A stretch of DNA of 64,000 bases from assembly GCA_037445555.1 (NCBI GenBank), contig JBBIKG010000012.1:14016-78015 (forward strand), given 5' to 3'. This DNA comes from Lentimicrobiaceae bacterium. Its GTDB lineage: Bacteria; Bacteroidota; Bacteroidia; Bacteroidales; JAAYJT01. Of the stretch, positions 5,691 through 57,567 are shown piece after piece (within the stretch, counting starts at the first letter, position 1; each line of letters opens with the position of its first letter). The notes beneath the pieces were generated by a model. It worked only from the letters and a program-made list of their open reading frames with translations, did not search any database and was not told where the DNA came from. A program made the translations under genes and the position numbers.

Positions 5691-6520
5691 TGTGCAGAAT
5701 TTTCGGGAGGTGATAATTTTAAAGCTTTAACGATAAGCCCTGTCCCTTTGGTGTGCCTTCTGTTTACATCGATCAGGTTTAGAAGTAGGCAAAGAGGTAT
5801 GGTGACAAGATAGTAGAAAGGAAGCAGAAGAAGGAACCATTTTGAAAGCCCCAGAATGAGCATCGGGTATTTCATGGATAATTTCCATGCGATTTGCCCT
5901 GGGTTCCCGTAAGAATAACCTGCCTCAACCTTCGAGAAGCCCGCGTGCATAAGTTTCCCCTTTATCTCTTCCATTCCATACCCATTACGAACATGCTCAC
6001 CGATAAATGACTCATCATGTGCATCTTCCGCATCTGAGCCTCCCAGATCAGAGGGGGTGGATATAATCAGTAAAGCTCCGGGCCGCAATGCGTGATAAAG
6101 GTTTTTGAATACCAAGACGTCGTCGACAATATGCTCCATCACATCGATGGAGATGGCCAGGTCGTATTTGTTTTCCTCGTGAAATTGGGTCAGGTCGGCC
6201 TGAATAAACCTTGCATTCGTCAGCTTTCTGTGGGCAAAGAACCGGGTACAGTCATCCACCTGTTCCTTTTTAAGGTCAACCCCGGACACCAAAGATCGGG
6301 TATAACGACTTGCAATAAAATAAGTGTATTGTCCAAACCCGCTTCCGGCATCCAACACTTCAATCGGCCGTTGGCGAGATCCGGCAAACCTTTTGATTTC
6401 CCTCTTTACGTACCAGGCTCGAAGCAACACGAGGTCGAGCATTTTATATATTATGACCCTGGCAATGGGATGGTAGCCGGCCAGCTTTCCAATGGTTGTT
6501 TTGATGGGGTCGTAAAGCAT
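5687..6520 (-). CDS. class I SAM-dependent methyltransferase
   Basis: VLDAGSGFG motif I, GVD, DVMEHI, LRPGALLIISTP. Confidence 0.85.
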   Translation of the reverse strand: MLYDPIKTTIGKLAGYHPIARVIIYKMLDLVLLRAWYVKREIKRFAGSRQRPIEVLDAGSGFGQYTYFIASRYTRSLVSGVDLKKEQVDDCTRFFAHRKLTNARFIQADLTQFHEENKYDLAISIDVMEHIVDDVLVFKNLYHALRPGALLIISTPSDLGGSDAEDAHDESFIGEHVRNGYGMEEIKGKLMHAGFSKVEAGYSYGNPGQIAWKLSMKYPMLILGLSKWFLLLLPFYYLVTIPLCLLLNLIDVNRRHTKGTGLIVKALKLSPPENSAQ

Positions 6521-6544
6521 TTGAAATGACAGGGTTAAAAAGGG

Positions 6545-6883
6545 CTATCCATGCAGAAGCTGGTCAATACGCTCGATATAATCGAGCGAGTCGTCGAGAT
6601 AGAAGTGTAGCTCGGGGACCACCCTTACCTGGTGTTTAATTCTGTTTCCGAGGTGATATCGTAAATCGCCGGCATGGGCTATTATTTTATTGAGCAGACC
6701 GCTTTTATCCTGCGTGGCAAAGAGGCTCACAAAAACTTTTGCCGACGAGAGGTCTCTACTTACCCGGACCTTTGTTACCGTAATCATGGCCCCATCAAAA
6801 TGGTTTCGTGATTCGCTGATAAAAATATCGCCAAGGTCGCGCTGGAGCAGTTTGGCTATTTTGTTTTGTCTGACTGTTTCCAT
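6545..6883 (-). CDS. rbfA: ribosome-binding factor A
   Basis: RQNKIAKLLQRDL, ITVTKVRVSRDLSSAKVFVS, RVVPELHFYLDDSL. Confidence 0.96.
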   Translation of the reverse strand: METVRQNKIAKLLQRDLGDIFISESRNHFDGAMITVTKVRVSRDLSSAKVFVSLFATQDKSGLLNKIIAHAGDLRYHLGNRIKHQVRVVPELHFYLDDSLDYIERIDQLLHG

Positions 6884-7053
6884 AGTGCAAAAGTAGGATT
6901 AATTGGTTTAGCGCAATATTTTCAAAGCCAGGGGAGTGTTGCCCGGCACTAAAACGGTCGGCAGGTAGTCTCGCCAGTAATGTAGCGGCGAAGGACGCAA
7001 AAAAAGCATTTTACGTTGGCCGTTATTGCAAACGAGTAATAAATTTGCGCCCG

Positions 7054-7083
7054 ATGCAACTTCCTGGGCCTGATTATCGTCAA
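7054..7083 (+). promoter_or_regulatory. putative ECF sigma-factor promoter (ATGCAAC-N17-CGTCA)
   Basis: AAC...CGT with 17-nt spacer about 30 nt upstream of the 7112 ORF; same motif occurs upstream of the ECF sigma gene at 15197-15225. Confidence 0.55.
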
Positions 7084-7111
7084 TAAATGTAACAAATTTA
7101 ACCATACCATT

Positions 7112-8938
7112 ATGAGAAAATATTTGATGAGTGCGATCCTGGCTGCTGGTTTAACAAATGTACTTTGGGCTCAATATTATGGCGACAGGCCCCTGGAGAT
7201 GTCGTTTGAGAAAACCGAGTTCTTTTTCAGGCCTATTTATCTCAACCCGCTGAGCACAGAGAATTTCGAAGGGCCTTCGCTTGTAGGCCTACATAACACT
7301 TTAATCGACCTACAACGCAACCCGGCAAATCTTTCTAGATTTGATAAAGATTCGCTGCCTGGCAGCTATTTTTATGTCGATTTTAGAAACTCCAGGAGCA
7401 TACTGAATAACCATTATGGCGGCATCTATCCCTACGATAAACTAAGCGTATCTTCCATCGCCCCGCGATATGGCTACTATTATACCTCTGAGCGGAAGGA
7501 ACTCACTCCGTTGATGAGCATTGCCTGGCTTTCGAGGCTGCCCGTTTTCAATAAATCAGTGACCCTGGGTGTTACCTATCAGGTAATTACGCTGGGAGAA
7601 AAATATTATTCCATCCCTTACGATATCTACCGCAATGCAGCCGGAAAAAACCTTGACGGAGCCTCATATGCAGGCTTGGAGAACTATACAATCACTGACA
7701 GGTTTTCGGGTTCTGACGAAATGTATCACGAGGGACATTCCATCCAAATATTTTCGGCTTACGAAATTAATGAGCAGTTGACCTTAGGAATCAAGGCCGG
7801 AAAGTTTTTGTTTGATCGTGACGGAAGCTTGGGGAGTAATAACATCTGGGATCAGCAACCCGGCTACCAGAACTACTGGAAAACTAACGAATCCAGAAAC
7901 CAGCAATACGATCACTTGGATTTTTCGCTTGGAGCAACCTATAAACAAAACAGCAGTACGTATGGCGCTTATGCCGGGTTCCTTTCCGGTAATGTGTCGC
8001 AACTCATGACCCGAAAGGATGATTCCTATTCTCAATATGGCTCAAAAGGCACAAATAACTGGAGTCTTTACAAGGGATGGTATACCTCGGACCAGGACTG
8101 GAACCATGAAGGAAATACCTACTATTCTTCACTTCAGATGGAGCACGAGTTGAATAACAGTACCCGGTTCAGACTGATGTATGATTATTCCTATTCTGAC
8201 CTGGACTTAAGGCTGAAATCATCCATCGAAAACCAATCGGAGAACGAGTATTATTACAAATGGAACACAAACTCCAGCCAAAGCAACGGTTCGACCAAAA
8301 TGTATGATTTCAGGAACGGCTCAGGTGGAATATCTTCGGGTACACATATCATACGGGCAGCTTTAAGCTGGCAGGTAACCGCCCGTCAAACCTTTGTTCT
8401 AGGGGCTATCGCAGGGCTACGGTCTGAACAAACAAAAACGAGCGAACGGACTGATTCCTACAGCGAAGTAAACAACTATTACAAATACATAAACAACTCG
8501 AACGAAACCATCTCGGAATACTACCGCCTGGCCGATGAGGATAAAACGATTAACTGGGAATACTCTACCCGGATGCGAACTTTTCAGATGCCTGTATTTT
8601 ATCAGCTCGCTTTCAAGGAACGATATAAAATCCTGCTGGGGATTAACCGAAGCATGAATTTCTGGAGGGCTGACAACACCACGCTCATTCTGTACGATTA
8701 CCGCCGGCGAATCAATAACTCCGAGGTGCTGGTTGAACGTATGACCGGCGAGCGTATTACAGAACCCCGCGAACGGATGAGTGTTATAAAAACCAGCTTT
8801 TTAGGAAACTTTTGCTTTTCTCCTGCCAGGAATGTTGGAGTCAATTTTTCCATTTCACCCGAAGTTAGCAAAAGCTCATATTACGACTCTATGAAGGTGG
8901 GCATGCAGTTTTGGGTAGGCATATCGCTTCAGTTGTAG
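7112..8938 (+). CDS. hypothetical exported protein, probable outer-membrane beta-barrel
   Basis: Signal peptide ending WA-Q; Tyr/Asn/Ser-rich alternating beta-strands; C-terminal FWVGISLQL. Confidence 0.6.
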   Translation: MRKYLMSAILAAGLTNVLWAQYYGDRPLEMSFEKTEFFFRPIYLNPLSTENFEGPSLVGLHNTLIDLQRNPANLSRFDKDSLPGSYFYVDFRNSRSILNNHYGGIYPYDKLSVSSIAPRYGYYYTSERKELTPLMSIAWLSRLPVFNKSVTLGVTYQVITLGEKYYSIPYDIYRNAAGKNLDGASYAGLENYTITDRFSGSDEMYHEGHSIQIFSAYEINEQLTLGIKAGKFLFDRDGSLGSNNIWDQQPGYQNYWKTNESRNQQYDHLDFSLGATYKQNSSTYGAYAGFLSGNVSQLMTRKDDSYSQYGSKGTNNWSLYKGWYTSDQDWNHEGNTYYSSLQMEHELNNSTRFRLMYDYSYSDLDLRLKSSIENQSENEYYYKWNTNSSQSNGSTKMYDFRNGSGGISSGTHIIRAALSWQVTARQTFVLGAIAGLRSEQTKTSERTDSYSEVNNYYKYINNSNETISEYYRLADEDKTINWEYSTRMRTFQMPVFYQLAFKERYKILLGINRSMNFWRADNTTLILYDYRRRINNSEVLVERMTGERITEPRERMSVIKTSFLGNFCFSPARNVGVNFSISPEVSKSSYYDSMKVGMQFWVGISLQL

Positions 8939-46201: not shown

Positions 46202-49200
46202 TTATTGCGTTGAATCTGCCTCCGAAATCTCATCATCCGAGCGTATCTGGTGTTTCTTTTGGCTGGCAAAAGCAAGGGAAATCACCATCAGAACCACCAC
46301 AACCGCCACATATACTCCTGCAGGCACGGGAGCCGGATCGCCCTGGGCATAGCTGTGAAGCCCCGACAGGTAATAGTTCACCCCGAAATAGGTCATCAGC
46401 ACTGAAGAGAATCCCGCCAGAGCGGCGGCACTCAGCGCAAACTGGCCCCTTAACCCGGGAATCTTGTGCATATGGGTGATGAATGAATATATCAAAATTG
46501 TGACTAAAGACCATGTTTCTTTTGGATCCCAGCCCCAATATCGACCCCACGACTCGTTAGCCCACACCCCTCCAAGAAACGAGCCTATTGTCAGAAGATA
46601 AAGTCCTAGGATAAGTGCTATCTCAATGATGTAGGAAAGCTCTTTTACAGTGAAGCCAACTCGTGCAGAATTGTAGGATGTGCGACTAATTATCAGTAGC
46701 AGGTTTGTTAGCCCCAACAGAGCCCCTGTGCCAAGAAATCCATAGCTGGCTGTAATAACAGAAACATGGATTATAAGCCAATATGATTTGAGAACAGGCA
46801 CTAAATTGGTAAGTTCGGGATTCATCCAGCTCATCCCTGCAACAAAAAGTGTAATGGCTGCTAATATAGCGGTTACTGCAAGGGTAATGGGCGAGCGCCG
46901 TGCGAAAACCAATCCGGCCAGAGCCGAAGTCCAACTGATGTAAAGCAAAGTTTCATAGCCATTACTCCAAGGTGCATGATCGGTAATATACCAGCGGGCG
47001 GCCATAGCCATTGTATGAATCAATAATAGGCCGAGTATGATCCAAAAAACAATTTTGGCAAGGTTGGCTCGCCTGGCAACCGGACTCATTAATGTTGTGA
47101 TCTGATAAATAAGTAAAAGCAAACCGAAGAAAATATATAGTATGGCCAGCCTGCTGTATATGTTTAAGTTGATATAATGAATTTCAAGCCATGTTTTGAA
47201 TCGGGGCGGGTGAATCGCCGCTCCAGCTGTTTTTTGAAAGTCAATCAGCTGATCGAGATATGTATTGGCTTGGCTATAGTCCTTAGAAACTTCGGCCTTC
47301 ATCAAAGCATGCAAATAGTTCTGCATCGACTTTAGCGCCGGATTTTCCTTTAATGCTTCATTGTGGCTGAGCGCGCTGTGAAAATCAGTCCATTTATTAT
47401 TTGGGTCGCCCGGTACTGGAAAAATTGTCAGGTAAGTGCCATTGAGCATCCCATACAATACGTTCACTCTTTCATCAATGGCTATTATTTCTTTGTCAAA
47501 ACGCGATCGTTGTACCAATTTTTTCTCGTACGCTTTTTCTACAAATTCCTGCAATTTGTAGTTTGATTCGTGATCGTTTTGAAAAAAATCTGCAAAGGAT
47601 GCCTGCTCAGACCGAATTCCGAGATGGCGTTGTATCTCGGGATTAGAGACTTTAATTATGGGAACGGTGAGCCAGGCCTGTGAGTTTGCGGTGATTTCAA
47701 TGAGAATTTGTGTAGCAGTTTTACCGTTAAAAGTTGTTTTCCTGGCAATTTTTCTGAGCAATTCCGAAGCAAGGGTGTTTATCGGTTCAATACGTCCATC
47801 GGCTCCAAGCACCTGTAATCGTCGGAATTTTTTTTCATGCTCTTCAATACTTACACCCGGAGTGCCCTGAGCAAATGCATGAGAATATGAAACAAGGAAG
47901 GCTATCAGTACGATTCCTGACAGTTGAGTGCTCGATTTGTTTGAGATTCGACCTAAAGCCCCTGCCAGTCTTCTAAATCGGCTGGAGCGAGCAAAAAGAG
48001 ATAAAATCATGCCTAAAGTCATCAGGAAGTAGCCAATATAAGTAATGATCGTGCCAGCAGCATCATAATTTACCGAAAGAACCGTGCCTTCTTCATCCTG
48101 ATCATATGAAGATTGAAAAAAGCGGTAGCCTTGATATTTGAGTATGTTGTTCATGAATATCCTGTAGGGTCGATTAATATTATGCGCCTGGTCAATCAGC
48201 ATAACTTCGCTTGCAAACGATGAGGGACTGTTTGATCCTGGATAGCGCTCGAGTTGAAAGTCATGTAATTTAAGTGAAAACGGCAGCTGGATAACAGCAG
48301 AAGCATAGGATAGATCAATTTCTGTGTCACCAATCTTGAATGTTGTGGGCTCATCGTGACTGTTGGTTTCAAAGATAGAAGCGATATTAGTTTCATTATC
48401 AACACTAACCGAAAACTGAAGAGCATTTGAGCCGGGAGTGCCATCAGGCGCAGGTACGGAGACAAGCTTCAGAATCCCGGATTTTATGTATTTTTTAATA
48501 ACAAAAGTTATGTCACCAGTTCGATAAATGGTTCGAGGCATTAGTTCTAGCGGCTGTCCAGGGGCAACTTGCTGATTCCCTTCTAAGCCCATTTGAGATA
48601 CAAAAACAGAATCAATTGCATTTAGAACAAGGGTCCCATTTTCTTCCCTGATTCTAAGTTGAGCCTCGGGAGAGTTGTAATCAAAACTGAAAACAACGTT
48701 CCCGATTCTATGCTGCTTATTTTGCTCAAGTACGAAGTCGTCGCGATGGCCATGCATATCCATGGCGAGCAGTGAAATCATTGGCACCCCATTTGGGCCC
48801 TCGACCAAGGTCTTGGTGGCATGGGGCAGATAGTCATCGAGTTTTATGGTAATTTTCTTGTGGTTCAGCTTGAAAGTCTTGCTAAATCTATTTGCGAAAT
48901 TTGGCGAAAGCATAAGATCCTTCGTAGCCAAATATTCTTCCCGATTCGAGCGAGCTGATATTTTTAAGGATTTTGTGGATGCTATCAAACGACTGCTAGA
49001 TTCTCCTTCGCGGATGTGCATCATGCCTTCGAAACCAGTATAACGCGTAACCGCTGCCCCAGCCAGTATTACCAAAAACCCAAAGTGAAACAAAAATACC
49101 GGCCAGCGTTTACGACTTACCAGTTTATTTACAACAATGCTTCCTCCTAGGTTGATGGATAATAAGAGCAGTAACACTTCGAACCACCAGGCATTGTAAA

Positions 49201-49330
49201 TGAGAAGCCGGGCAGTTGGGGTGCCAAAATCATTTTCGACAAACGTGGCATATGCAATTGCAAGCGCAAAGACCATTATCAACATGCCAGTTATCTGCAT
49301 CGAGAATACAAATGAAAATACTTTTTTCAT
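46202..49330 (-). CDS. ccsBA: fused System II cytochrome c synthase (ResB-ResC / CcsBA)
   Basis: FLFHFGF...RYTGFEG, FQLERYPGS.SPSSFAS, HAPWSNGYE, WLIIHV, WWD domain WANESWGRYWGWDPKETW, GLHSYA. Confidence 0.95.
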   Translation of the reverse strand: MKKVFSFVFSMQITGMLIMVFALAIAYATFVENDFGTPTARLLIYNAWWFEVLLLLLSINLGGSIVVNKLVSRKRWPVFLFHFGFLVILAGAAVTRYTGFEGMMHIREGESSSRLIASTKSLKISARSNREEYLATKDLMLSPNFANRFSKTFKLNHKKITIKLDDYLPHATKTLVEGPNGVPMISLLAMDMHGHRDDFVLEQNKQHRIGNVVFSFDYNSPEAQLRIREENGTLVLNAIDSVFVSQMGLEGNQQVAPGQPLELMPRTIYRTGDITFVIKKYIKSGILKLVSVPAPDGTPGSNALQFSVSVDNETNIASIFETNSHDEPTTFKIGDTEIDLSYASAVIQLPFSLKLHDFQLERYPGSNSPSSFASEVMLIDQAHNINRPYRIFMNNILKYQGYRFFQSSYDQDEEGTVLSVNYDAAGTIITYIGYFLMTLGMILSLFARSSRFRRLAGALGRISNKSSTQLSGIVLIAFLVSYSHAFAQGTPGVSIEEHEKKFRRLQVLGADGRIEPINTLASELLRKIARKTTFNGKTATQILIEITANSQAWLTVPIIKVSNPEIQRHLGIRSEQASFADFFQNDHESNYKLQEFVEKAYEKKLVQRSRFDKEIIAIDERVNVLYGMLNGTYLTIFPVPGDPNNKWTDFHSALSHNEALKENPALKSMQNYLHALMKAEVSKDYSQANTYLDQLIDFQKTAGAAIHPPRFKTWLEIHYINLNIYSRLAILYIFFGLLLLIYQITTLMSPVARRANLAKIVFWIILGLLLIHTMAMAARWYITDHAPWSNGYETLLYISWTSALAGLVFARRSPITLAVTAILAAITLFVAGMSWMNPELTNLVPVLKSYWLIIHVSVITASYGFLGTGALLGLTNLLLIISRTSYNSARVGFTVKELSYIIEIALILGLYLLTIGSFLGGVWANESWGRYWGWDPKETWSLVTILIYSFITHMHKIPGLRGQFALSAAALAGFSSVLMTYFGVNYYLSGLHSYAQGDPAPVPAGVYVAVVVVLMVISLAFASQKKHQIRSDDEISEADSTQ

Positions 49331-49872
49331 GCTATAATTTAAACTGATTTTAGAAAGTTATTTGCGATTAGAAAAGAATGACCAAAGACACTTGTTCTTA
49401 AATTAACAAATCTGGATACAAAACTATGAATTAATCTCACAATCATTGTTTGATCGCTTTGAGCAGGCAATAGGCTTTGTTAATTATTTGTTAATCTGCG
49501 CAATTACCATCAACCCTACAGTAAAATGCATATATGTTTTATCTGGTAAAACTTTCCCTTTTTGAACCACTCACTTACAGGTGCTAGCTTCAACCTGTAG
49601 AAAAGGTAACTTGTTTAATAGGTTTGGACGATTTTAGGTGCGTAAATTCTTGTGTTAAGGGCAAGACTTTTGAACTTCCTTTTTCTGTCAGAAATTCTCT
49701 GCCTTGCGCCAGCTATAATATCTCTCTAGCGCGGCTTAGGTTTGGCAAGCGAAAACCTGACAAGTATTGTCAGTTCTTAACCATCTGTGACTAGTGAAGG
49801 AAGAACATTATCCCTATCGTCCGAAATCGAGCACGAGACAATTGTTCACCCAATACGATTATGTCTTTAACT

Positions 49873-49913
49873 TTAAAGAAAGGCCTAACCGAATCGGTCA
49901 GGTCTTTCTTTAA
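49873..49913 (-). terminator. intrinsic terminator ending the cytochrome operon
   Basis: TTAAAGAAAGGCCTAACCGA / TCGGTCAGGTCTTTCTTTAA hairpin just after the stop at 49930. Confidence 0.75.
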
Positions 49914-49929
49914 TAGGGCTCCAGGGTTA

Positions 49930-50970
49930 TTAATTGAGTGAGGCTAATGTGTTAAGAAGCAGCGCTCTTGTGAGCCGGTAATTATGCGCTCCACTACTGC
50001 CATCGTATGCAATGAACCTATAATTCATAACAGCGGCAGCTTCCATCTGGGTCATTGTTCTGGGAACAGGGATTAGATCCTGATCATTGAGAAGGCCTTT
50101 TTGCAGTAATCTGGTCTTAAGCTGAGAAATCAATCCCTGAATTTCGGTCCTGTTTTGAGCCAACACAGTAGTGATCGCTGTAACATTGCTATGGCAGCCC
50201 GATGCACCACAACCCGTATATTGATATGCAGTTGCGCCTGCAGTATTTGTATATTTTACATTCATTTGATGCCCTCCCGCCCAGATTCCTGTTGCAGTAG
50301 ACATATGGCAAGTAACACATCCGTTAGTAACGGCTGTAGTATGAGCTGAATTCAGGTAGGGCTGTGTGCCAGGAATTTGGAATGGGCCTCTGCCTGATAG
50401 CATGTTGGCTTGCGGGCCATAGTGGGGACCATACCGGGCATTTGTAATCGTAATATTAGCGCCCCCGCTTACCGGATATGGCGAGATGGGTCGTGCTTGA
50501 TGGCAATTTGCACATAGGTTCGAATTATTGTAGCTGTAATTAGCTTCGCCAACGCTAAGTGCTACCGCTTGTTTTGTGCGCAATGCGTAATCGTTAACGG
50601 TATACGACTCATGGATCGGGTGGCATGTCCGGCAATTTATTGGTGTAGGATTATCAACGATAGCTGTTGTTCCATCCTTAATGAAGTTACGAAACCCCAT
50701 ACTAGTATGGCACCTTGAGCAAGTGGCGGAATTTTGCGTCACATTTATTCCGCTTGCATGTTTTGATTTGGAGTATTGGGCAATTTTTGAGGTAAGCAGT
50801 TCCGACAGGTTATGGCACCCGCTGCAGCTTTCTGCACCGTCTTTACCATCAATACCATCAAGTCCTGGTTTGCCCTCGGGCCCCTCTTTTGTGCAGCTGC
50901 TGATCATGATACTACCAAACAGAAATATAATCAACGCAGTTTGAATGACAAGTGAATGTTGCTTTTTCAT
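49930..50970 (-). CDS. multiheme cytochrome c lipoprotein (5 CxxCH plus 1 CX4CH)
   Basis: ISSC lipobox, six Gly-X-Y triplets, CSGCH, CSRCH, CRTCH, CANCH, CVTCH, CGASGCH; C-terminal DGSSGAHN helical region. Confidence 0.9.
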   Translation of the reverse strand: MKKQHSLVIQTALIIFLFGSIMISSCTKEGPEGKPGLDGIDGKDGAESCSGCHNLSELLTSKIAQYSKSKHASGINVTQNSATCSRCHTSMGFRNFIKDGTTAIVDNPTPINCRTCHPIHESYTVNDYALRTKQAVALSVGEANYSYNNSNLCANCHQARPISPYPVSGGANITITNARYGPHYGPQANMLSGRGPFQIPGTQPYLNSAHTTAVTNGCVTCHMSTATGIWAGGHQMNVKYTNTAGATAYQYTGCGASGCHSNVTAITTVLAQNRTEIQGLISQLKTRLLQKGLLNDQDLIPVPRTMTQMEAAAVMNYRFIAYDGSSGAHNYRLTRALLLNTLASLN

Positions 50971-50987
50971 AAGGATACGGTATTTGT

Positions 50988-51656
50988 TTAATTTGTTTTA
51001 TTGTTGTTTTTTGTATCAGGTGTTGTGGTTTCTGTATCGTGCTCCTCGTGATATCCGGTGATGATGGTTTTAAAACCCTTAGTTGGACTGGGGCCGATGG
51101 TGATCACATATAGATGGATGATCAGGAAAATGGATATAAAGAAGCCGGCGATTGAATGAACCAGACTTGTCAGCATGATCCCGCTGTAGCCAAAAACATT
51201 CAGAACGATGGTTTCCGGATATATCAAGGCCCAACCTGTAATAAAGGTAATGGGGGTGATGGCATGCATGATTACGAAATATGTGATCTGCTGAATCGGA
51301 TTAAACTTTCTCTCCTCAGTTATCCGAAACGGATTTTTTTCGCCACGAAATATTCCAAAAAGATAATAGCGGAGTTGCCTGGTAAAAGCCACAAAGAAAT
51401 TTTCTGTTCGCACGACATAGTAGCGTCCGATGGTAGTAAACAATACTCCGATAAGAAAGAGAAAATACGAGATGGTGAGCGAAACGCCGCAAAGATTGTG
51501 AATCCTCACGGCGATATCAAAACGAATAAGCGGATAAGCAGGATCGGAGTATTGCATACTGATCCCCGTGGCTATCAAAAAAATCATCAAAACAGCATTA
51601 ACATGATGCCAGATACGAAGCCACAAGGGGTATAGGTAAAGTTTTTTACTCGTCAT
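50988..51656 (-). CDS. diheme cytochrome b, membrane quinol-interacting subunit (CbcB/PhsC-like)
   Basis: RIWHHVNA, RIHN, KFNPIQ, LVHS, IIHLY, IITG; four TM helices; overlaps the upstream heptaheme gene. Confidence 0.88.
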   Translation of the reverse strand: MTSKKLYLYPLWLRIWHHVNAVLMIFLIATGISMQYSDPAYPLIRFDIAVRIHNLCGVSLTISYFLFLIGVLFTTIGRYYVVRTENFFVAFTRQLRYYLFGIFRGEKNPFRITEERKFNPIQQITYFVIMHAITPITFITGWALIYPETIVLNVFGYSGIMLTSLVHSIAGFFISIFLIIHLYVITIGPSPTKGFKTIITGYHEEHDTETTTPDTKNNNKTN

Positions 51657-52645
51657 TTTCCCCTCCTGTATTTTAAATAGCGCAATGTGGCATGCAACGC
51701 TATACCTGCCAGCACCATCCCGAAAATAACTACACTGATGAGGTTAAAATAGTAATTTCTGTTCGCTCCTATTATGTAAGCATCTCCGGTGATGGAGGCA
51801 TTAAAAAATCCATACTTGTTCCGTCGCTCAATGATTTGGTGTTTGTAGAGTGATGCCAGCAAAATGGAATTTGTCGAATGGCAGTCCACGCAGTTCTTCA
51901 CCGCCTCATCGGCAGGCTTGACGTGATGCGCTACTAAGATATCTTTATTTACTTGCGCATGGCAATCAATACATCGCACCTTGCGAAAATGAAGGCTTTG
52001 ATTGGGCAGCCAGTCGTGCTTCGAAAGCATGTTAGTAAGCTGATTTTCGATAATCACAGCATAATGGCTTATATCGCCGTGACAACCTAAACACATGGAG
52101 TTATTGTAAGCAACCAGGTCGACAATGCTTTCTTGTGTACGAACGGTGGACCGGTAGGTGTGTGGGTTGTGGCAACTCCAGCAACTAAAACGGGGTATCA
52201 GATGCTCAGCGTGAACGCTGCTACTAAACTCTTTTTCGATAGTCTCGAAATGGAAATCGGCAAAATGTTGGTCATTGGCGTGGCAGTCCATACACGAATA
52301 CCTGACTTCAAACTTGACGCTCACCGGATGGGGGTGTATTTCGTAATCAGGAGAGTGACAGTCAGTACATGAAAAATGACCGTGTGTGGCTTTTGCGTAT
52401 CGTTTTGGATCGATTCTCAATTCTTCATACATCTTCATTGTAATCGACTCGCCTGTTTTTTCATCGGCGAACGTATAGGTTGAGGACCCGTGACAACGCA
52501 GGCAGGCATGATCGCTGTAATCTTCCTGCGGCTCAACCAGCAAGGTGGTTGCTCTTGCCGAAATCAACCAGACAATGAGAATCGGCGTTAGCCACAATGG
52601 CCATTTAACCCATGACGTCGGTTTTCGTTTTACTGAGGGTTTCAT
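51653..52645 (-). CDS. heptaheme cytochrome c with C-terminal membrane anchor (CbcA-like)
   Basis: CLRCH, CTDCH, CMDCH, CWSCH, CLGCH, CIDCH, CVDCH; N-terminal signal; C-terminal TM containing a His (IALHATLR). Confidence 0.88.
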   Translation of the reverse strand: MKPSVKRKPTSWVKWPLWLTPILIVWLISARATTLLVEPQEDYSDHACLRCHGSSTYTFADEKTGESITMKMYEELRIDPKRYAKATHGHFSCTDCHSPDYEIHPHPVSVKFEVRYSCMDCHANDQHFADFHFETIEKEFSSSVHAEHLIPRFSCWSCHNPHTYRSTVRTQESIVDLVAYNNSMCLGCHGDISHYAVIIENQLTNMLSKHDWLPNQSLHFRKVRCIDCHAQVNKDILVAHHVKPADEAVKNCVDCHSTNSILLASLYKHQIIERRNKYGFFNASITGDAYIIGANRNYYFNLISVVIFGMVLAGIALHATLRYLKYRRGK

Positions 52646-52663
52646 CTCTCTGCACTTAGTTCT

Positions 52664-52704
52664 AAAAAGAAGTAACCCGGATGAGGCTACTGTCCTTCAT
52701 CCCG
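52664..52704 (-). terminator. intra-operon hairpin with U-rich tail
   Basis: Minus strand GGATGAAGG-ACAGTAG-CCTCATCC followed by GGGTTACTTCTTTTT. Confidence 0.5.
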
Positions 52705-52705
52705 T

Positions 52706-53128
52706 CTACTTTTTCAGCGTTCGGATAAAATTCACAATAGCCCATCTCTCCTCTTCGTCGGGAATTGGCTTTTCAAAATTGGGCATTTCGTCGCGACCGA
52801 AAAATGACATATAATAAATCTCTCCGTCAGAAAGTTTCTGAAAGTCTTCTTTCGAAAAATCTCCCGAGAACGTCTTCAGGGTATTAGCCCGGGGGCCATC
52901 GCCCAATCCAGTGTTTCCATGACACGAGCGGCAGTGTTTTGCCCAAGCTGTCTTTCCGAGTTTGATCAGAGAGGCATCCCCCTTGTGTGGGTTCTTCATT
53001 TTTTTGTACGTGTCGGGGATGTTCCAGGGTGCTCCAAGTTTCTGTTCCTGTGGAGCAATAAAAGCCATAAAAGCGAGTGTGGCAATGGCTGCCATCATCA
53101 TCTTCAATCCATTATTCATTCTATTCAA
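52706..53128 (-). CDS. periplasmic monoheme cytochrome c
   Basis: Signal peptide, KNP, CRSCHG..GLGDGP, SDGEIYY, distal Met in EMPNF. Confidence 0.9.
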   Translation of the reverse strand: MNRMNNGLKMMMAAIATLAFMAFIAPQEQKLGAPWNIPDTYKKMKNPHKGDASLIKLGKTAWAKHCRSCHGNTGLGDGPRANTLKTFSGDFSKEDFQKLSDGEIYYMSFFGRDEMPNFEKPIPDEEERWAIVNFIRTLKK

Positions 53129-53146
53129 AGTTTAAGTTTGTTACTA

Positions 53147-54016
53147 TTAGAAGCCCCAAAGCCGGTTGATCGAAAAACCGAACATAAGGTCTCCTCTGGT
53201 CCAGTCATAATTATTATATAGTGCATTGTGCTGAGGAATCATACCGTCAGCCGACGTCACATAAATATGAAAAGCATGGGTGGTGGTTTTAATTTCCCAG
53301 CCAATGCCCAGGTTTGGTTTGGCCAAATCTTTAAATTCACGGTGCTCCCTTATTCCATCAACTTTCAGCGGAATATCGTATTGGAAAAGAATTGAAGATT
53401 GAGGCGAGAATTTGATTCTTCCATTAAAACCCAAGGCAATTTTGTCATGATCGATACCGGGTTGTGTGATGTTGAAATGAGTGAAGCTGACATTGGCCTG
53501 AACCGATAACCAGTCGGTGAATTTGCGGCCTACGATCAACTGTGAAAAGTAAGAGAATCGATTGGTGAATTGGTAATTTTTCCCAAACAGTTCTTCATTC
53601 CTGCCATCTATGGTCATGTTGGCATATATTCCAACGGCAACCGGAATGGTATTTCGCCTGGTTTGTTCCAGGATGGTGTATTTCACTGAAAAATCGCTGT
53701 ACATATTTACCCTGCTGAGGCCATAACCTACCTGCAGGTTTTTTATCGGTACATAGGACAGAGCAAGTCTAATGTTTGCTCCGGGGGCATAAATTCCGAA
53801 TAAATCGGAAAAACCGTTTGCCATGGTTCCAAACTTATGCTGAATAAGCAATTCCAGCGAATTGGATGGTGGAACAACCGTGGTTTGGTTGTCGATCAAG
53901 ATGCCAGTTTCGAATGGCGACCTCACAGGTCTGTCCTTTGGTTTCTCTTCCGGCTCCTGGGCAATCAATCCTAAAACTGATAGAAGGAAGCATGCATTGA
54001 TGAAATATTTTTTCAT
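53147..54016 (-). CDS. outer-membrane beta-barrel protein (DUF5777-like)
   Basis: Signal peptide; F....LID.QT, IQHKFG, GANIRL, RFSYFSQLIVGRKF, HAFHI, FGFSINRLWGF C-terminus. Confidence 0.78.
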   Translation of the reverse strand: MKKYFINACFLLSVLGLIAQEPEEKPKDRPVRSPFETGILIDNQTTVVPPSNSLELLIQHKFGTMANGFSDLFGIYAPGANIRLALSYVPIKNLQVGYGLSRVNMYSDFSVKYTILEQTRRNTIPVAVGIYANMTIDGRNEELFGKNYQFTNRFSYFSQLIVGRKFTDWLSVQANVSFTHFNITQPGIDHDKIALGFNGRIKFSPQSSILFQYDIPLKVDGIREHREFKDLAKPNLGIGWEIKTTTHAFHIYVTSADGMIPQHNALYNNYDWTRGDLMFGFSINRLWGF

Positions 54017-54034
54017 GGTCGGTGTCTGTTGATA

Positions 54035-54412
54035 TTAGTTGTTTTGTGCTCCCTGCTTGATCCAGTTCAATACCAATGATGCCTGTGCAGGCGTGTATTT
54101 CTTAAATCCATGTCCGGAAGAGGCTGGGTTGGGGTATGTGTAAATCTTACTGGATTCGGGGTTGGCTAACTTAACCAGTGATGGCACTATGGAATTGTAA
54201 GCCCGGTCAGTGGTAAGATCGGGCGGCTGCGAACCTGCCTTGTGGCAAGCCGTACAATTGTTGTTTGCATTGAAAATGGGGATTATTTCCGTTGAGAATT
54301 TCACCGTAACAGAGGGGTCAGAAGTGTCTGTTTCGATGAACTCGTATTCGCAGGAAGTCATTGCAAGGAAAATTATCAGCAAGGCACCAATTAAAAACCA
54401 TTTTGTTTTCAT
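54035..54412 (-). CDS. monoheme cytochrome c lipoprotein
   Basis: MTSC lipobox, F..EIIPIF...CTACH, PESSKIY, WIKQGAQNN. Confidence 0.82.
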   Translation of the reverse strand: MKTKWFLIGALLIIFLAMTSCEYEFIETDTSDPSVTVKFSTEIIPIFNANNNCTACHKAGSQPPDLTTDRAYNSIVPSLVKLANPESSKIYTYPNPASSGHGFKKYTPAQASLVLNWIKQGAQNN

Positions 54413-54498
54413 GTTTCAGAGTATTTCTGGTATCACAAAACAACCAAATATCTACATATAAGATAATTAATATCCCATGAAAAAGACATTGGTTTCTA

Positions 54499-54533
54499 TT
54501 GATATTTGTCACAGATGGATTGATCTATATCAG
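54499..54533. promoter_or_regulatory. two tandem FNR/CRP-like boxes in the divergent promoter region
   Basis: TTGAT-ATTT-GTCAC (54499-54512) and TTGAT-CTAT-ATCAG (54520-54533) versus FNR consensus TTGAT-N4-ATCAA; TACCTTTG -7 element at 54556-54563. Confidence 0.65.
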
Positions 54534-54619
54534 TGCATATTGTGGTCAATATAATTACCTTTGCGCCTTCATGGATGCAAATTGTCCGTTTTAATATTAC
54601 TTTCCGACATATAAACACT

Positions 54620-55312
54620 ATGGGGAAATTGGCAAACTTATCATGCCTGGGCTGCCTGAAAAGATCGGAAATATTCAACTCTTTGATCGAATCCGAACTC
54701 GAAATGATTGATTGTCACAGGGTAAGCGTTAATTACTCCGCTGGCGAGATTCTTTTCAAACAGGGAACCCCCTGCTATAACTTTACCTGCATTACATCGG
54801 GTATGGTAAAATTATATATTGAACACGACGACCATCACAAGACCATAGTCGGGTTGGTCAGGCCTGTAGACTACATTTTTGTACCCGGAGCTTATGTCGA
54901 TCAGCGTCATCACTTTACTGCGGTTGCCTGTGAACCAACCACAGCCTGCCTTATCGATACCCATATTTTTCGCGACCTGGTGAGGCTGAACCCGCAGTTT
55001 GCAAATGATTTCATTACTAAATTAAGCAACCAAGCCATTGCTCTTTTGGATAGGATCTCGGGGTTCTCGCACAAGCATATTTTTGGCCGGATGGCCGAAA
55101 CCTTGCTCTACCTTGCCAACCATATTTATAAAAGCAATATCTTCGATCTTACCCTTTCGCGGCAGGATTTGGCTGACCTGTCGGATATGACCAAAGAAAG
55201 CGCCATCAGAGTGCTGAAGAAATTCAAGGATGATGGGATCATCCGACTTGAATCTAATCACATCGAGATCATAAATACGACCATGCTCGAATCCGTTAGC
55301 CGCACGGGATGA
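54620..55312 (+). CDS. Crp/Fnr family transcriptional regulator, Cys-rich
   Basis: N-terminal CLGC, cNMP-binding fold (LFKQG, SGMVKLY), HTH LSRQDLADLSDMTKESAIRVL. Confidence 0.92.
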   Translation: MGKLANLSCLGCLKRSEIFNSLIESELEMIDCHRVSVNYSAGEILFKQGTPCYNFTCITSGMVKLYIEHDDHHKTIVGLVRPVDYIFVPGAYVDQRHHFTAVACEPTTACLIDTHIFRDLVRLNPQFANDFITKLSNQAIALLDRISGFSHKHIFGRMAETLLYLANHIYKSNIFDLTLSRQDLADLSDMTKESAIRVLKKFKDDGIIRLESNHIEIINTTMLESVSRTG

Positions 55313-55431: not shown

Positions 55432-57567
55432 ATGAAGGTTTATAAAACTAATGAGGTAAGGAATGTGGCCCTTATCGGTAGTGCAAAATCGGGCAAGACT
55501 ACATTGGCCGAATCGATGTTGTTCGAAGGTGGATTGATCAACCGCCGCGGCAGTGTTGACGATAAAAATACCGTTTCAGACTATCGAGAGATTGAGCTGG
55601 AGCGCCAGAATTCAGTATCATCCACTGTGTTGTATGCCGAATATCAGGGGCATAAACTCAATATCATCGACACCCCAGGATTTGACGATTTTGTGGGCGA
55701 GGTTGTTGCATCATTGTATGTGGCCGACTCAGCCATAATGGTAGTAAACGCACAGAACGGGATTGAAGTGGGTACCGAAATTCACTGGAGACATACGGTC
55801 AAAAACAACACGCCGGTTATTTTTGCCATCAATCACCTGGAACATGAAAAATCGAGCTTTGAGGAAACCACGCGCCAGCTTAAACAGCAGTTCGGCAACA
55901 GTGTCACCATAGCTCAGTACCCGGTTAATGAAGGCCACAGCTTCAACAGCATCATCGACCTGCTGAAGATGAAGATGTTCAAGTACCCTTCAGGTGGGGG
56001 CAAACCCGAGGTTCTGGATATTCCAGCCTCTGAAAAAGAAAAAGCCGAAAGCTTTCAGGCCATTCTGATTGAAAATGCAGCAGAGAATGACGAAAGCCTC
56101 ATGGAAACCTTCTTCGAAAACGGAACACTTAACGAAGAAGAAATTAAGCGGGGTCTGAAACTCGGCATTACAAACCGTGGTTTGTTTCCTGTGTTTTGTA
56201 TTGGAGCCAAGCCATTCATCGGAATTGGCCGGTTAATGGAATTTCTGATCAGCTCAATGCCTGCGCCTGCTGACGCTCCGGCCAAGAAAACCACTGCCGG
56301 CAAGGATTTGAAATGCAACGCTGCTGAGCCGACTTCCGCGTTCATTTTTAAAACATCTATTGAACCGCATCTGGGCGAAGTGTCATTCTTTAAAGTTTAT
56401 GCCGGCGAAATGGCCGAAGGAACCGACATGGTTAACGGCATTACCGGGAATAAGGAAAGAATAACACAGCTTTACGCTGTGGCTGGCAAAAGCCGCGAAA
56501 AAGTTGAAAAGGTAATGGCCGGCGACATCGGAGCCACCATTAAGCTTAAAAGCGCACGCACCAACCAAACCTTAAACAGCCCCAAAAACTCGGATGACGT
56601 TATTTCGCCTATCGTATTTCCGGAGCCAAAAATCCGTATGGCAGTGAAGGCAAAGAACTCAACCGACGACGAAAAACTGGGTGGCATCCTGAACGAAATG
56701 AATAAGATGGACCCCACACTTATCGCACAACAGTCGAAAGAACTGCGCCAGCTTATCGTGGAAGGGCAGGGCGAGTTGCACCTCAACATCGCCAAATGGC
56801 ATATCGAAACAATGGAGAAGATTGCCATAGAGTATATCGCTCCAAAAATTCCTTATCGCGAAACCATTACCAAGCAGTCAAAATCGATGTATCGCCACAA
56901 GAAACAGTCGGGTGGTGCCGGTCAGTTTGGTGAAGTGCACATGCTTATCCAGCCTTATACAGAAGACATGCAGAAACCTACCGAGTTCCCGGTCAGGGGC
57001 ACCGAAGAACACGAAATGACTTGGGGAGGCAAGCTCATCTTCAACAACTGTATTGTTGGGGGTGCCATTGATGCGCGTTTTATGCCTGCCATTCTGAAGG
57101 GAATTATGGAAAAAATGGAACAGGGCCCGCTCACTGGGTCCTATGCACGCGACATCGCTGTGTATATCTACGATGGCAAGATGCATCCGGTCGACTCAAA
57201 TGAAATATCGTTTAAGCTGGCCGGCCGTAACGCCTTCAAGGAAGCCTTCAAAAATGCAGGACCAAAGATTCTTGAGCCTATCTACGACGTTGAGGTTATC
57301 GTTCCCGAAGACAAGATGGGTGATGTGATGACCGATCTTCAAGGCCGCCGTGCCGTTATAATGGGTATGGACAGCGAAGGGAACTACCAGAAAATAAAGG
57401 CCAAGGTCCCCCTGGCCGAAATGAATCGTTATTCCACCTCGCTCAGTTCAATCACCAGCGGAAGGGCTACCTACAACCTGCGGTTTGCCGAGTACACTCA
57501 GGTTCCGCCCGATGTTCAAACTGCACTGCTCAAAACTTACGAAGAGCAGGAATCGGATGAGGATTAG
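55432..57567 (+). CDS. elongation factor G paralog (EF-G2 type)
   Basis: EF-G domains with HKKQSGGAGQFG, DGKMHPVDSNE, LEPIY; divergent G motifs (GSAKSGKT, DTPGF, NHLE). Confidence 0.93.
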   Translation: MKVYKTNEVRNVALIGSAKSGKTTLAESMLFEGGLINRRGSVDDKNTVSDYREIELERQNSVSSTVLYAEYQGHKLNIIDTPGFDDFVGEVVASLYVADSAIMVVNAQNGIEVGTEIHWRHTVKNNTPVIFAINHLEHEKSSFEETTRQLKQQFGNSVTIAQYPVNEGHSFNSIIDLLKMKMFKYPSGGGKPEVLDIPASEKEKAESFQAILIENAAENDESLMETFFENGTLNEEEIKRGLKLGITNRGLFPVFCIGAKPFIGIGRLMEFLISSMPAPADAPAKKTTAGKDLKCNAAEPTSAFIFKTSIEPHLGEVSFFKVYAGEMAEGTDMVNGITGNKERITQLYAVAGKSREKVEKVMAGDIGATIKLKSARTNQTLNSPKNSDDVISPIVFPEPKIRMAVKAKNSTDDEKLGGILNEMNKMDPTLIAQQSKELRQLIVEGQGELHLNIAKWHIETMEKIAIEYIAPKIPYRETITKQSKSMYRHKKQSGGAGQFGEVHMLIQPYTEDMQKPTEFPVRGTEEHEMTWGGKLIFNNCIVGGAIDARFMPAILKGIMEKMEQGPLTGSYARDIAVYIYDGKMHPVDSNEISFKLAGRNAFKEAFKNAGPKILEPIYDVEVIVPEDKMGDVMTDLQGRRAVIMGMDSEGNYQKIKAKVPLAEMNRYSTSLSSITSGRATYNLRFAEYTQVPPDVQTALLKTYEEQESDED

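Follow-up and report, generated by a model that had tools for sequence, protein, structure and literature searches.

A stretch of 64,000 nucleotides from a Lentimicrobiaceae bacterium (order Bacteroidales; GenBank assembly GCA_037445555.1, contig JBBIKG010000012.1, positions 14,016 to 78,015 of the forward strand), referred to throughout as the window, contains a cluster of six genes which encode four c-type cytochromes, a b-type cytochrome and an outer-membrane (OM) beta-barrel of the DUF5777 family. On the best reading, this cluster may encode an anaerobically induced, Fnr-controlled and modular chain that transfers electrons outward across the cell envelope. The foundations of this reading are computed and consist of the gene content, the conserved linkage, the family memberships, the size of the barrel, the modelled complex of barrel and lipoprotein, and a conserved FNR box. 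In the chain that we infer from them, where it is presumed that the two lipoproteins are exposed at the surface, and where the sequence of carriers, the outward direction and the acceptor are likewise presumed, menaquinol would be oxidised by a CbcBA-type pair (a cytochrome b and an anchored heptaheme cytochrome c) and the electrons would then pass to a soluble periplasmic monoheme cytochrome c. Next would come an OM module in which a monoheme lipoprotein is seated on the extracellular loops of the 12-strand DUF5777 barrel, and at the end of the chain an OcwA-like hexaheme cytochrome would reduce extracellular or poorly permeant acceptors, for instance Fe(III) or Mn(IV) oxides or humic quinones. 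A chain of this kind would let a fermentative anaerobe dispose of reducing equivalents.

The six genes are tightly packed and co-oriented on the minus strand between positions 49930 and 54412, which is where a preliminary description of the window, made from the letters alone, had placed them. Listed from the upstream end they are:

54035-54412, minus strand: monoheme cytochrome c lipoprotein, 125 amino acids (aa), with lipobox Cys21 and one CxxCH
53147-54016, minus strand: DUF5777 OM beta-barrel, 289 aa (PF19089, E 4.3e-72)
52706-53128, minus strand: periplasmic class-I monoheme cytochrome c, 140 aa (PF00034/PF13442)
51653-52645, minus strand: heptaheme cytochrome c (CbcA-like), 330 aa, with 7 CxxCH and a C-terminal membrane helix
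50988-51656, minus strand: cytochrome b (CbcB/PhsC-like, dihaem-type), 222 aa (PF01292, E 1.8e-21)
49930-50970, minus strand: hexaheme cytochrome c lipoprotein, 346 aa, with lipobox Cys26, five CxxCH and one Cx4CH

There is an overlap of 4 base pairs (bp) between the genes for the heptaheme protein and cytochrome b. The heme c sites of the six-gene set add up to 15 (1 + 1 + 7 + 6), in agreement with the 14 to 15 counted previously, and stand beside the b-type cytochrome and the DUF5777 barrel.

The conservation of the cluster was addressed with a scan of one genome per species, which returned 55 loci whose barrels are 42-82% identical to that of the window. All belong to the Bacteroidales in the wide sense (Lentimicrobiaceae, Prolixibacteraceae, Carboxylicivirga, Saccharicrinis, Tangfeifania, Draconibacterium and others), and cultured carriers among them are Tangfeifania diversioriginum DSM 27063 (L030) and Saccharicrinis (L043 and L046). 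The occurrence of the genes in these loci was as follows:

Monoheme lipoprotein: present in 54/55, directly upstream of the barrel in 51/55
Hexaheme lipoprotein: 52/55
Heptaheme cytochrome: 49/55
Cytochrome b: 47/55
Heptaheme cytochrome and cytochrome b adjacent: 45/55
Periplasmic monoheme cytochrome: 41/55
Regulator homologue: 37/55
CcsBA heme lyase: within the fetched flank in 14/55
All six genes: 34/55

Where at least 4 kb was available on both sides of the barrel, the complete six-gene set was found in 24 of 35 loci. The core genes that were found lie on the strand of the barrel in all 55 loci, and their clustering is not due to chance; the gene order is permuted between lineages and the set is kept, with the hexaheme gene upstream in some and downstream in others. 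Synteny thus upholds the proposal, already made for the cluster, of a unit that joins a quinol-reactive inner-membrane pair to an OM barrel and lipoprotein cytochromes, and shows this unit to be conserved. Some relatives carry additional genes of the type associated with extracellular electron transfer (EET), which we count in favour of an outward chain. These are an ImcH-like NapC/NirT six-heme protein with three membrane helices (18/55 loci), a fusion of 19 hemes with a cytochrome b (4/55 loci; the representative, L038 5996-8842, has 948 aa, 19 CxxCH and a cytochrome b561 domain) and an eight-heme family (2/55 loci), whose representative in an uncultured Bacteroidales (L026 5863-7377) carries the type-IX secretion sorting domain PF18962, a tail that indicates a secreted or surface-attached multiheme partner. 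The layout of the L038 fusion is similar to that of Geobacter CbcL. A lipoprotein of no assigned family recurs in 15 of the 55 loci, a c554-like tetraheme cytochrome in seven and an NrfC-like iron-sulfur protein in two. Neither a molybdopterin enzyme or hydrogenase nor iron-uptake genes recur beside the cluster in the 55 loci.

The evidence for an OM module comes from the barrel and the monoheme lipoprotein. The barrel matches PF19089 over profile positions 1-247 with 242.8 bits against a cut-off of 23.1, and it is present as a single copy in the source genome. Its AlphaFold2 model (predicted local distance difference test, pLDDT, 86.5) has 12 strands, with long loops on one face and short turns on the face which holds both termini. 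Foldseek placed this model near the 12-14-strand barrels FapF, the COG4313 channel, NanC/KdgM and OmpG, with template-modelling (TM) scores of about 0.4-0.5, and a separate search with the barrel against solved structures gave nothing significant. From the usual topology of such barrels the long-loop face would be the extracellular one. In the lipoprotein Cys21, Tyr23 and C53xxCH57 are invariant across 45 sequences. Co-folding, proposed in the preliminary description as a check on contact between barrel and cytochromes, docked the modelled monoheme lipoprotein on the long-loop face, with scores of 0.77, 0.77 and 0.70 in three runs versus 0.00 for the best of three controls. Of 80 solved complexes 58 attained this mark, as did 2 of 110 mismatched pairs, a calibration which is approximate here as our own alignments were used. 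At least 73% of the contacts agree between the three runs and the pLDDT of the partner is at least 81. The interface places lipoprotein residues 20-29, among them the lipidated Cys21 and the invariant Tyr23, on two stretches of the barrel, 142-156 and 180-190, in which Tyr156, His180 and Asn182 are invariant; by strand order these barrel residues belong to loops 3 and 4, on the face opposite to the termini. The models therefore support a complex of the barrel with the monoheme lipoprotein.

Two further arrangements were considered for the barrel and are not supported: a heme held inside it by invariant histidines, as strand periodicity puts His60, His180 and His247 outward, and a hydrophobic (quinone) channel through it, as by the same periodicity the inward positions are mostly polar or charged and the lumen appears polar and charged. 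A fusion of cytochrome and barrel was found neither among the 120 near-length homologues listed, all of which carry PF19089 only, nor among longer proteins, the latter being weak evidence.

The comparison with known OM systems shows both likeness and difference. MtrCAB of Shewanella and Pcc/OmbB-OmaB-OmcB of Geobacter are built on porins of 20 or more strands, and the cluster shares with them in concept only that a quinol dehydrogenase, a periplasmic carrier, an OM barrel and a lipoprotein cytochrome are encoded together. It differs in that there is no periplasmic deca- or octaheme cytochrome to thread the barrel, the soluble carrier having one heme and the heptaheme cytochrome being anchored in the inner membrane, and in that one of its lipoprotein cytochromes carries a single heme and the other is an NrfA-type hexaheme protein, neither being a decaheme protein of the MtrC/OmcA type. 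The modelled barrel, with only 12 strands, has too few to sheathe a cytochrome as MtrB does, and the conduit of Mtr/Pcc kind to which the cluster had been likened is not borne out. Cyc2 of iron oxidisers is a fused monoheme cytochrome-porin of about 16 strands. Judged by these features, the cluster has in common with it one heme c and an OM barrel of modest size together with a class-I periplasmic cytochrome, whereas here two genes are involved, the cytochrome is lipidated and predicted to lie on the outer loops, and the barrel has 12 strands. Pairs of a surface lipoprotein and a barrel are familiar in Bacteroidota from SusCD and BtuBG, which likewise have adjacent genes and a lipoprotein that caps the extracellular face of its own barrel, as is predicted here; the barrel described in this work is, however, a small one of 12 strands and not a TonB-dependent transporter, and its lid carries a covalent heme.

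The pair of lipoprotein and barrel is both older and more widely distributed than the six-gene cluster. Of 201 genomes that sample the order, 87 have a PF19089 hit exceeding the cut-off, frequently two or three matches each. When 20 of these places were examined, five had the cluster-type barrel and 16 a paralogous type (L057-L068, L070-L072 and L076), with L066 having both. The heptaheme-cytochrome b pair was present at four of the five cluster-type places. The paralogous barrel is 25-32% identical and has a higher Pfam score; a small open reading frame for a CxxCH lipoprotein (110-135 aa) lies within about 2 kb of it at all 16 places, most of which also carry YceI-like proteins, a tRNA_anti-like (OB-fold) membrane protein or PSCyt1-domain lipoproteins, and none of the 16 has a respiratory module of its own. 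The lipoprotein on the paralogue side typically begins C-Y-Y-D-x-E-E after the lipobox.

At the level of the phylum the cluster-type profile was found at E <= 1e-60 in 14 of 401 sampled genomes, and ten distant loci were fetched (L077-L086), of which nine represent other orders of the class and the tenth a different class. In all ten the lipoprotein adjoins the barrel, and the periplasmic monoheme cytochrome is present in nine. All of the distant lipoproteins keep either CxxCH or Cx4CH, about half of them having Cx4CH; this variant is common to them and to the sixth site of the hexaheme protein of the window. The quinol module of seven distant loci is composed of a DsrO/NrfC-like iron-sulfur protein exported by the twin-arginine translocation pathway and an NrfD/DsrP-like membrane protein, in place of the CbcBA pair, and in most cases a membrane-anchored protein of about 285 aa with an immunoglobulin-like fold stands alongside. 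A CbcBA-like pair was seen only in L085, and the hexaheme gene nowhere but in L081 and L085. What stays constant is thus a core of lipoprotein, barrel and periplasmic cytochrome, while the quinol dehydrogenase is interchangeable and the hexaheme protein optional. In L081 a lipoprotein with an ethylbenzene-dehydrogenase-type domain (EB_dh, DOMON-like, heme b; 6353-7588) lies between the hexaheme gene and the lipoprotein-barrel pair.

The lipoproteins also differ in what we infer from their sequences to be the sixth ligand of the heme. The candidate column holds the Met of an 'x-P-M-P' motif in the paralogue-type and in most distant lipoproteins, and a His in those of the Bacteroidales cluster type. 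His was found at the column or within two residues of it in 45/45 Bacteroidales cluster-type sequences and in 2/2 distant loci with the hexaheme gene, and Met at the column in 9/9 distant sequences from loci without it and in 13/13 of the paralogue type, counts which overstate the independence of the sequences, since these are related to one another. Three Bacteroidales loci have a lipoprotein of the His type and no hexaheme gene in the fetched stretch. With His as the sixth ligand the lipoprotein would be bis-His and probably of lower potential where low-potential multiheme partners were added. A wider proposal, which we regard as possible but less likely than not, is that the DUF5777 barrel and the heme c lipoprotein form a new, phylum-wide OM redox module, a minimal 'split cytochrome-porin' unlike the Mtr sheath, which would connect periplasmic cytochromes with the surface by way of 12 strands, which is served by lineage-specific quinol dehydrogenases (CbcBA-like or NrfCD-like) and which underwent a switch from Met to His when an OcwA-like hexaheme protein was added for anaerobic reduction of minerals or humics. 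Electrons might cross such a module along a hopping path of amino acids, by way of a bound small cofactor, or with a shuttle that moves through the pore.

On the inner-membrane side, the sequences of the heptaheme cytochrome and the cytochrome b fit the description of Geobacter CbcBA, a bc-type menaquinol oxidoreductase of the inner membrane which serves outward transfer and in which a four-helix dihaem cytochrome b (CbcB, usually annotated as thiosulfate-reductase-like) is combined with a seven-heme cytochrome c (CbcA) held by a C-terminal helix, this helix supplying a His proposed as a ligand of b heme (Joshi, Chan and Bond 2021). Seven CxxCH were counted in 44 of 45 homologues of the heptaheme protein, which ends in a C-terminal hydrophobic helix, and His318 in this helix is conserved in at least 95% of the 45 sequences. 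In the cytochrome b His17, His53, His167 and His181, located in helices 1, 2 and 4, are each at least 95% conserved (41 sequences), and its best NCBIfam match is NF011582, the thiosulfate-reductase b subunit, with 155 bits, below the cut-off of 204 bits. The features shared with CbcBA are therefore a seven-heme cytochrome c with a His-bearing C-terminal helix and, adjacent and downstream, a thiosulfate-reductase-like four-helix cytochrome b. The differences are the regulator, which in Geobacter is the sigma-54-dependent BccR as opposed to a Crp/Fnr protein and FNR box here, the b-subunit histidines, three according to the paper versus four conserved membrane histidines here, and the embedding of the present pair in an operon with OM parts. 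A search of the Protein Atlas with the heptaheme protein returned generic cytochrome clusters only (mostly of Bacteroidota, Pseudomonadota and Thermodesulfobacteriota), which is no evidence on homology to CbcA. Against solved structures the cytochrome b gave nothing significant and the heptaheme protein a single entry, 28pb ('Cytochrome c', 2.5e-7), a match which is not interpretable. The periplasmic monoheme protein has its CxxCH and a Met in a conserved 'GRdeMP' motif (40 sequences).

The anaerobic induction of the cluster is suggested by its regulator and by the sites in front of it:

54620-55312, plus strand: Crp/Fnr regulator, divergent from the six genes (PF00027 and PF13545; the reading frame is open from GTG 54533, with ATG 54620 as the likely start)
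54520-54533, no strand assigned: FNR/CRP-type box TTGATCTATATCAG, one mismatch to TTGAT-N4-ATCAA
54499-54512, no strand assigned: second, weaker FNR/CRP-type box, two mismatches to the consensus

The two Pfam domains confirm the divergent Crp/Fnr regulator first noticed in the letters. The boxes lie in the 207-bp intergenic region between regulator and operon, and TTGAT-N4-ATCAA is what we take to be the FNR/CRP consensus. A box with at most one mismatch was present in the intergenic region of 14 of 17 related loci with a divergent regulator, and 11 of 15 boxes are perfect; the density is about 2.7 FNR boxes per kb in those intergenic regions versus 0.15 per kb over whole loci. It should be noted that the count over the entire window at two mismatches (60 found, 48.6 expected) is not above chance, so that only the intergenic comparison across loci carries weight. 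Among 38 homologues of the regulator Cys is conserved at positions 9 (74%), 12 (89%), 57 (66%) and 110 (100%), which gives a C9-x2-C12 motif and an invariant C110, and the matches to FnrL/Fnr-like NCBIfam models are below cut-off. These regulators do not reproduce the spacing of cysteines that we presume for E. coli FNR. Taken together, boxes and cysteines make control by an FNR-like sensor of redox state or oxygen likely.

The hexaheme lipoprotein is a candidate terminal reductase. A profile of 40 aligned members, 33 of which have six CxxCH and six of which have five CxxCH and one Cx4CH, matched entries of the Protein Data Bank in the order OcwA (6I5B, 1.4e-16), ONR (8RV0, 3.4e-13), OmhA (6QVM, 1.7e-12) and NrfA (3UBR, 1.1e-11), where 6I5B is OcwA of Thermincola potens and 6QVM is OmhA (Costa et al. 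2019; Soares et al. 2022). In the family the sixth motif is thus normally a CxxCH at the place where the window has Cx4CH. From these alignments, which cover the C-terminal pentaheme module and the helical bundle, the protein is best described as a pruned cytochrome of the NrfA/ONR/OcwA superfamily, its six hemes corresponding to the pentaheme core of NrfA and one preceding heme. An assignment as MtrC-like was rejected (PF22113, 29.0 bits against a cut-off of 30), the profiles placing the protein in the NrfA/OcwA family. It shares with OcwA, OmhA, NrfA and ONR a C-terminal helical bundle which ends in a conserved G-x-H-N motif, and with OcwA the presence of CxxCH instead of CxxCK at the heme equivalent to NrfA heme 1 (OcwA heme 5). 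It differs from them in having six hemes and not nine, eleven, five or eight, from OcwA and OmhA, which are surface terminal reductases of Gram-positive metal reducers, in being a tethered lipoprotein of a diderm cell, and from NrfA in that the catalytic Lys, Tyr and Arg are not kept. The model of the protein (pLDDT 86) has three long C-terminal helices and a disordered tether; Foldseek matches to it are weak, the best being ONR (E 0.03, TM 0.36) with nothing at E <= 0.001. After the lipobox an invariant T-K-E-G-P is followed by a collagen-like Gly-X-Y run (window 50830-50890, residues about 27-47), which comprises 3 to 11 triplets in ten homologues sampled. In the model this run looks like a flexible tether, and it could be a spacer or an element of oligomerisation.

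The membership of the hexaheme protein in this superfamily is also the ground of the first alternative, in which the cluster would be a periplasmic respiratory reductase: the hexaheme protein would reduce a soluble substrate (nitrite, hydroxylamine, NO, or an oxyanion of sulfur or of another kind), the CbcBA-like pair and the monoheme cytochrome would feed it as NrfH or NrfBCD feed NrfA, and the role of the barrel with its lipoprotein would be to let the substrate in or to sense it. The profile matches to ONR (3.4e-13) and NrfA (1.1e-11) speak for it, as does the alignment by HMMER of the second motif, C84xxCH, with the CxxCK of ONR. In addition residue 183 is an invariant His, next to which 25 of the 40 members have His and the other 15 Tyr; this pair is placed comparably to, and resembles, the distal His-His pocket over the open hemes of OcwA, although HMMER does not align that stretch to OcwA, and OcwA itself has been reported to reduce nitrite and hydroxylamine slowly. 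The polar and charged lumen of the barrel would likewise suit a channel for small solutes. On the other hand, the catalytic heme of NrfA proper, with CxxCK and a Tyr/His/Arg pocket, is not kept: the proximal Lys is absent and Arg160 stands in 38 of 40 members at the place of the catalytic Tyr of the NrfA motif CHVEYY. The six invariant non-motif histidines (71, 120, 183, 210, 234 and 329) permit two readings: either all six hemes are bis-His, or five of them are and His183 belongs to a substrate pocket. An hhalign comparison of the hexaheme profile with the NrfA of the same genome (E 2.9e-6) covers the C-terminal half only, so that the active site was mapped by way of the HMMER alignment to ONR. 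NrfHA and an octaheme cytochrome of the tetrathionate-reductase (OTR) family are present in the genome in any case; moreover the hexaheme gene is missing from eight of the ten distant loci which keep barrel, lipoprotein and periplasmic cytochrome, and is therefore an add-on and not part of the core, and a periplasmic reductase leaves the conserved complex of barrel and heme lipoprotein without a role. We consider this alternative unlikely on balance. It does bear on the statement in the preliminary description that the cluster has no catalytic subunit, which holds in so far as no molybdopterin enzyme or hydrogenase recurs and CxxCK is lacking, but is too strong in that the hexaheme protein belongs to the NrfA/ONR/OcwA superfamily and may have a substrate-accessible heme.

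A second and distinctly improbable alternative is the inward uptake of electrons through oxidation of a donor outside the cell (Fe(II), Fe(0), a cathode or reduced humics, for example), in which barrel and lipoprotein would act as a split Cyc2 that passes electrons to the periplasmic class-I cytochrome and from there to an oxidase or uphill to the quinone pool. The combination of a monoheme protein, a small barrel and a class-I His/Met cytochrome resembles the arrangement of Cyc2 and Cyc1, a caa3-type subunit II and NrfHA are possible sinks in the genome, the Met-type lipoproteins of other Bacteroidota would suit a donor of high potential, and chains of cytochromes are reversible. The lipoprotein of the window is, however, of the His type and is joined to multiheme partners of low-potential type and to a CbcBA-like module, which in Geobacter serves outward transfer according to the published account; Fnr-type control points to anoxia, and the barrel is encoded by a separate gene and has 12 strands, whereas Cyc2 is fused and has about 16. 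Least probable of all is a non-respiratory redox service at the surface. It might, for example, assimilate iron reductively, by reducing Fe(III) where the barrel opens and importing the Fe2+ through the pore, or it might detoxify an external oxidant or supply electrons to secreted enzymes. In its favour, DUF5777 with a small heme lipoprotein is widespread (87/201 genomes of the order, other orders and one other class), paralogous copies stand with YceI-like and PSCyt1 proteins and no respiratory module, and the barrel lumen is charged and polar. Against it, the copy in the window comes with 13 more hemes and a quinol module, a larger set than iron assimilation should require; genes for iron uptake do not recur alongside, and the regulator is of the Fnr and not the Fur type.

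Returning to the outward chain, a number of points weigh against it as well. A barrel of 12 strands, as modelled, is too small to hold a cytochrome; the analysis turned up no cofactor or relay that would span the OM, and by strand periodicity the three invariant histidines of the barrel appear to face outward at the membrane interfaces and not into the lumen. Given the lack of room for a cytochrome, the outward histidines and the polar lumen, the OM step would need a further relay or a diffusible carrier that passes through the pore. The periplasmic cytochrome is of the class-I His/Met type, which is usually of high potential and would be odd in a low-potential outward chain. The hexaheme protein comes from a superfamily of enzymes, with its second heme aligned to the catalytic heme of nitrite reductases, and could act on a soluble substrate in the periplasm. 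The likeness to CbcBA (GSU0593/0594) is one of published features, together with the statement of Joshi et al. on homologues in Bacteroidetes. The other orders of the class which carry the core trio may be mostly aerobic lineages, and if so the ancestral role of the trio need not have been mineral respiration. Finally, the residues after the lipobox, C-E-Y-E-F-I-E-T-D in the monoheme and C-T-K-E-G-P in the hexaheme protein, match only in part the export signals described for lipoproteins of Bacteroidetes, which are C-X-K-(D/E)2, SDDDD and SDDFE (Lauber et al. 2016).

The surroundings of the cluster contain three other features:

49884-49902, minus strand: terminator-like hairpin right after the hexaheme gene, 8-pair stem with a T-rich tail (consensus scan only)
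46202-49330, minus strand: ResB + CcsA fusion, System II heme lyase, 1042 aa (PF05140 and PF01578, TIGR03144)
55432-57567: EF-G paralogue, 711 aa, after the regulator

The CcsBA lyase, at first grouped with the cluster, is indeed present downstream, but about 600 bp and the hairpin separate it from the six genes. It is the only copy in the genome and is thus probably a housekeeping enzyme which serves all c-type cytochromes. The EF-G paralogue is probably next to the cluster by coincidence; a homologue (55% identical) lies beside the cluster in one of the ten distant loci (L079) and in 0 of the 55 Bacteroidales loci.

Other genes of the source genome (2.5 Mb, 99.6% complete) include those for NrfHA, for a caa3-type subunit II and for an octaheme cytochrome of the OTR family that has a cytochrome b and a Crp-like regulator of its own, which identifies the organism as a respiring one and not a pure fermenter. 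The octaheme module, which lies outside the window at about 6801-9901 of contig C3 (L088), is a second module of similar build. Beside the Crp-like regulator it has an octaheme protein that scores 567 bits with TIGR04315 (cut-off 375) and carries a membrane helix at its C-terminus, and a cytochrome b (PF01292) which is 30% identical to that of the window. On contig C23 (9031-11690, L087) a protein of 401 aa with a signal peptide has a CxxCH about 30 residues in; the remainder has the look of a barrel and matches no Pfam or NCBIfam family. Its gene, likewise outside the window, adjoins that of a tetraheme cytochrome of 457 aa, and by its sequence the 401-aa protein might be a fused cytochrome-porin of the Cyc2 kind. 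The stretch was found in four sequencing runs of a single subsurface-metagenome study, one of them possibly its source; there is no RNA run among them.

Parts of the cluster have known counterparts. A CbcBA-like part has been noted in Bacteroidetes, clusters homologous to cbcBA having been listed for Prolixibacter, Marinilabiliales and Labilibaculum (Joshi et al. 2021), and the OcwA-type reductase is known from Gram-positive bacteria. The earlier view that there is no characterised equivalent in the Bacteroidales needs qualifying for the cbcBA homologues, which are already in print; the OM module was not found in the literature searched and is possibly new in kind. DUF5777 has no mention in that literature; nor does it describe DUF5777 barrels paired with heme lipoproteins, the use of such a pair as a module, or the ligand switch, with the limit that the search did not extend to supplements, where Joshi et al. 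and the authors of the Marinifilaceae paper may list homologues from Bacteroidetes.

Labilibaculum from subsurface sediment has been described as reducing Fe(III) and Mn(IV) oxides during fermentation by genes which the authors of that work state were not known. The cluster described in this work is a concrete candidate for Fe(III) and Mn(IV) reduction by Bacteroidota such as Labilibaculum. The Bacteroidota form an abundant part of the communities of anoxic sediments, of digesters and of the subsurface, and models usually treat them as fermenters. If a small barrel and a heme lipoprotein do carry electrons across the OM, this would be a further solution beside those of Mtr/Pcc and Cyc2, DUF5777 would gain a function, and a terminal reductase of the OcwA type, so far characterised in Gram-positive bacteria, would enter the diderm envelope.

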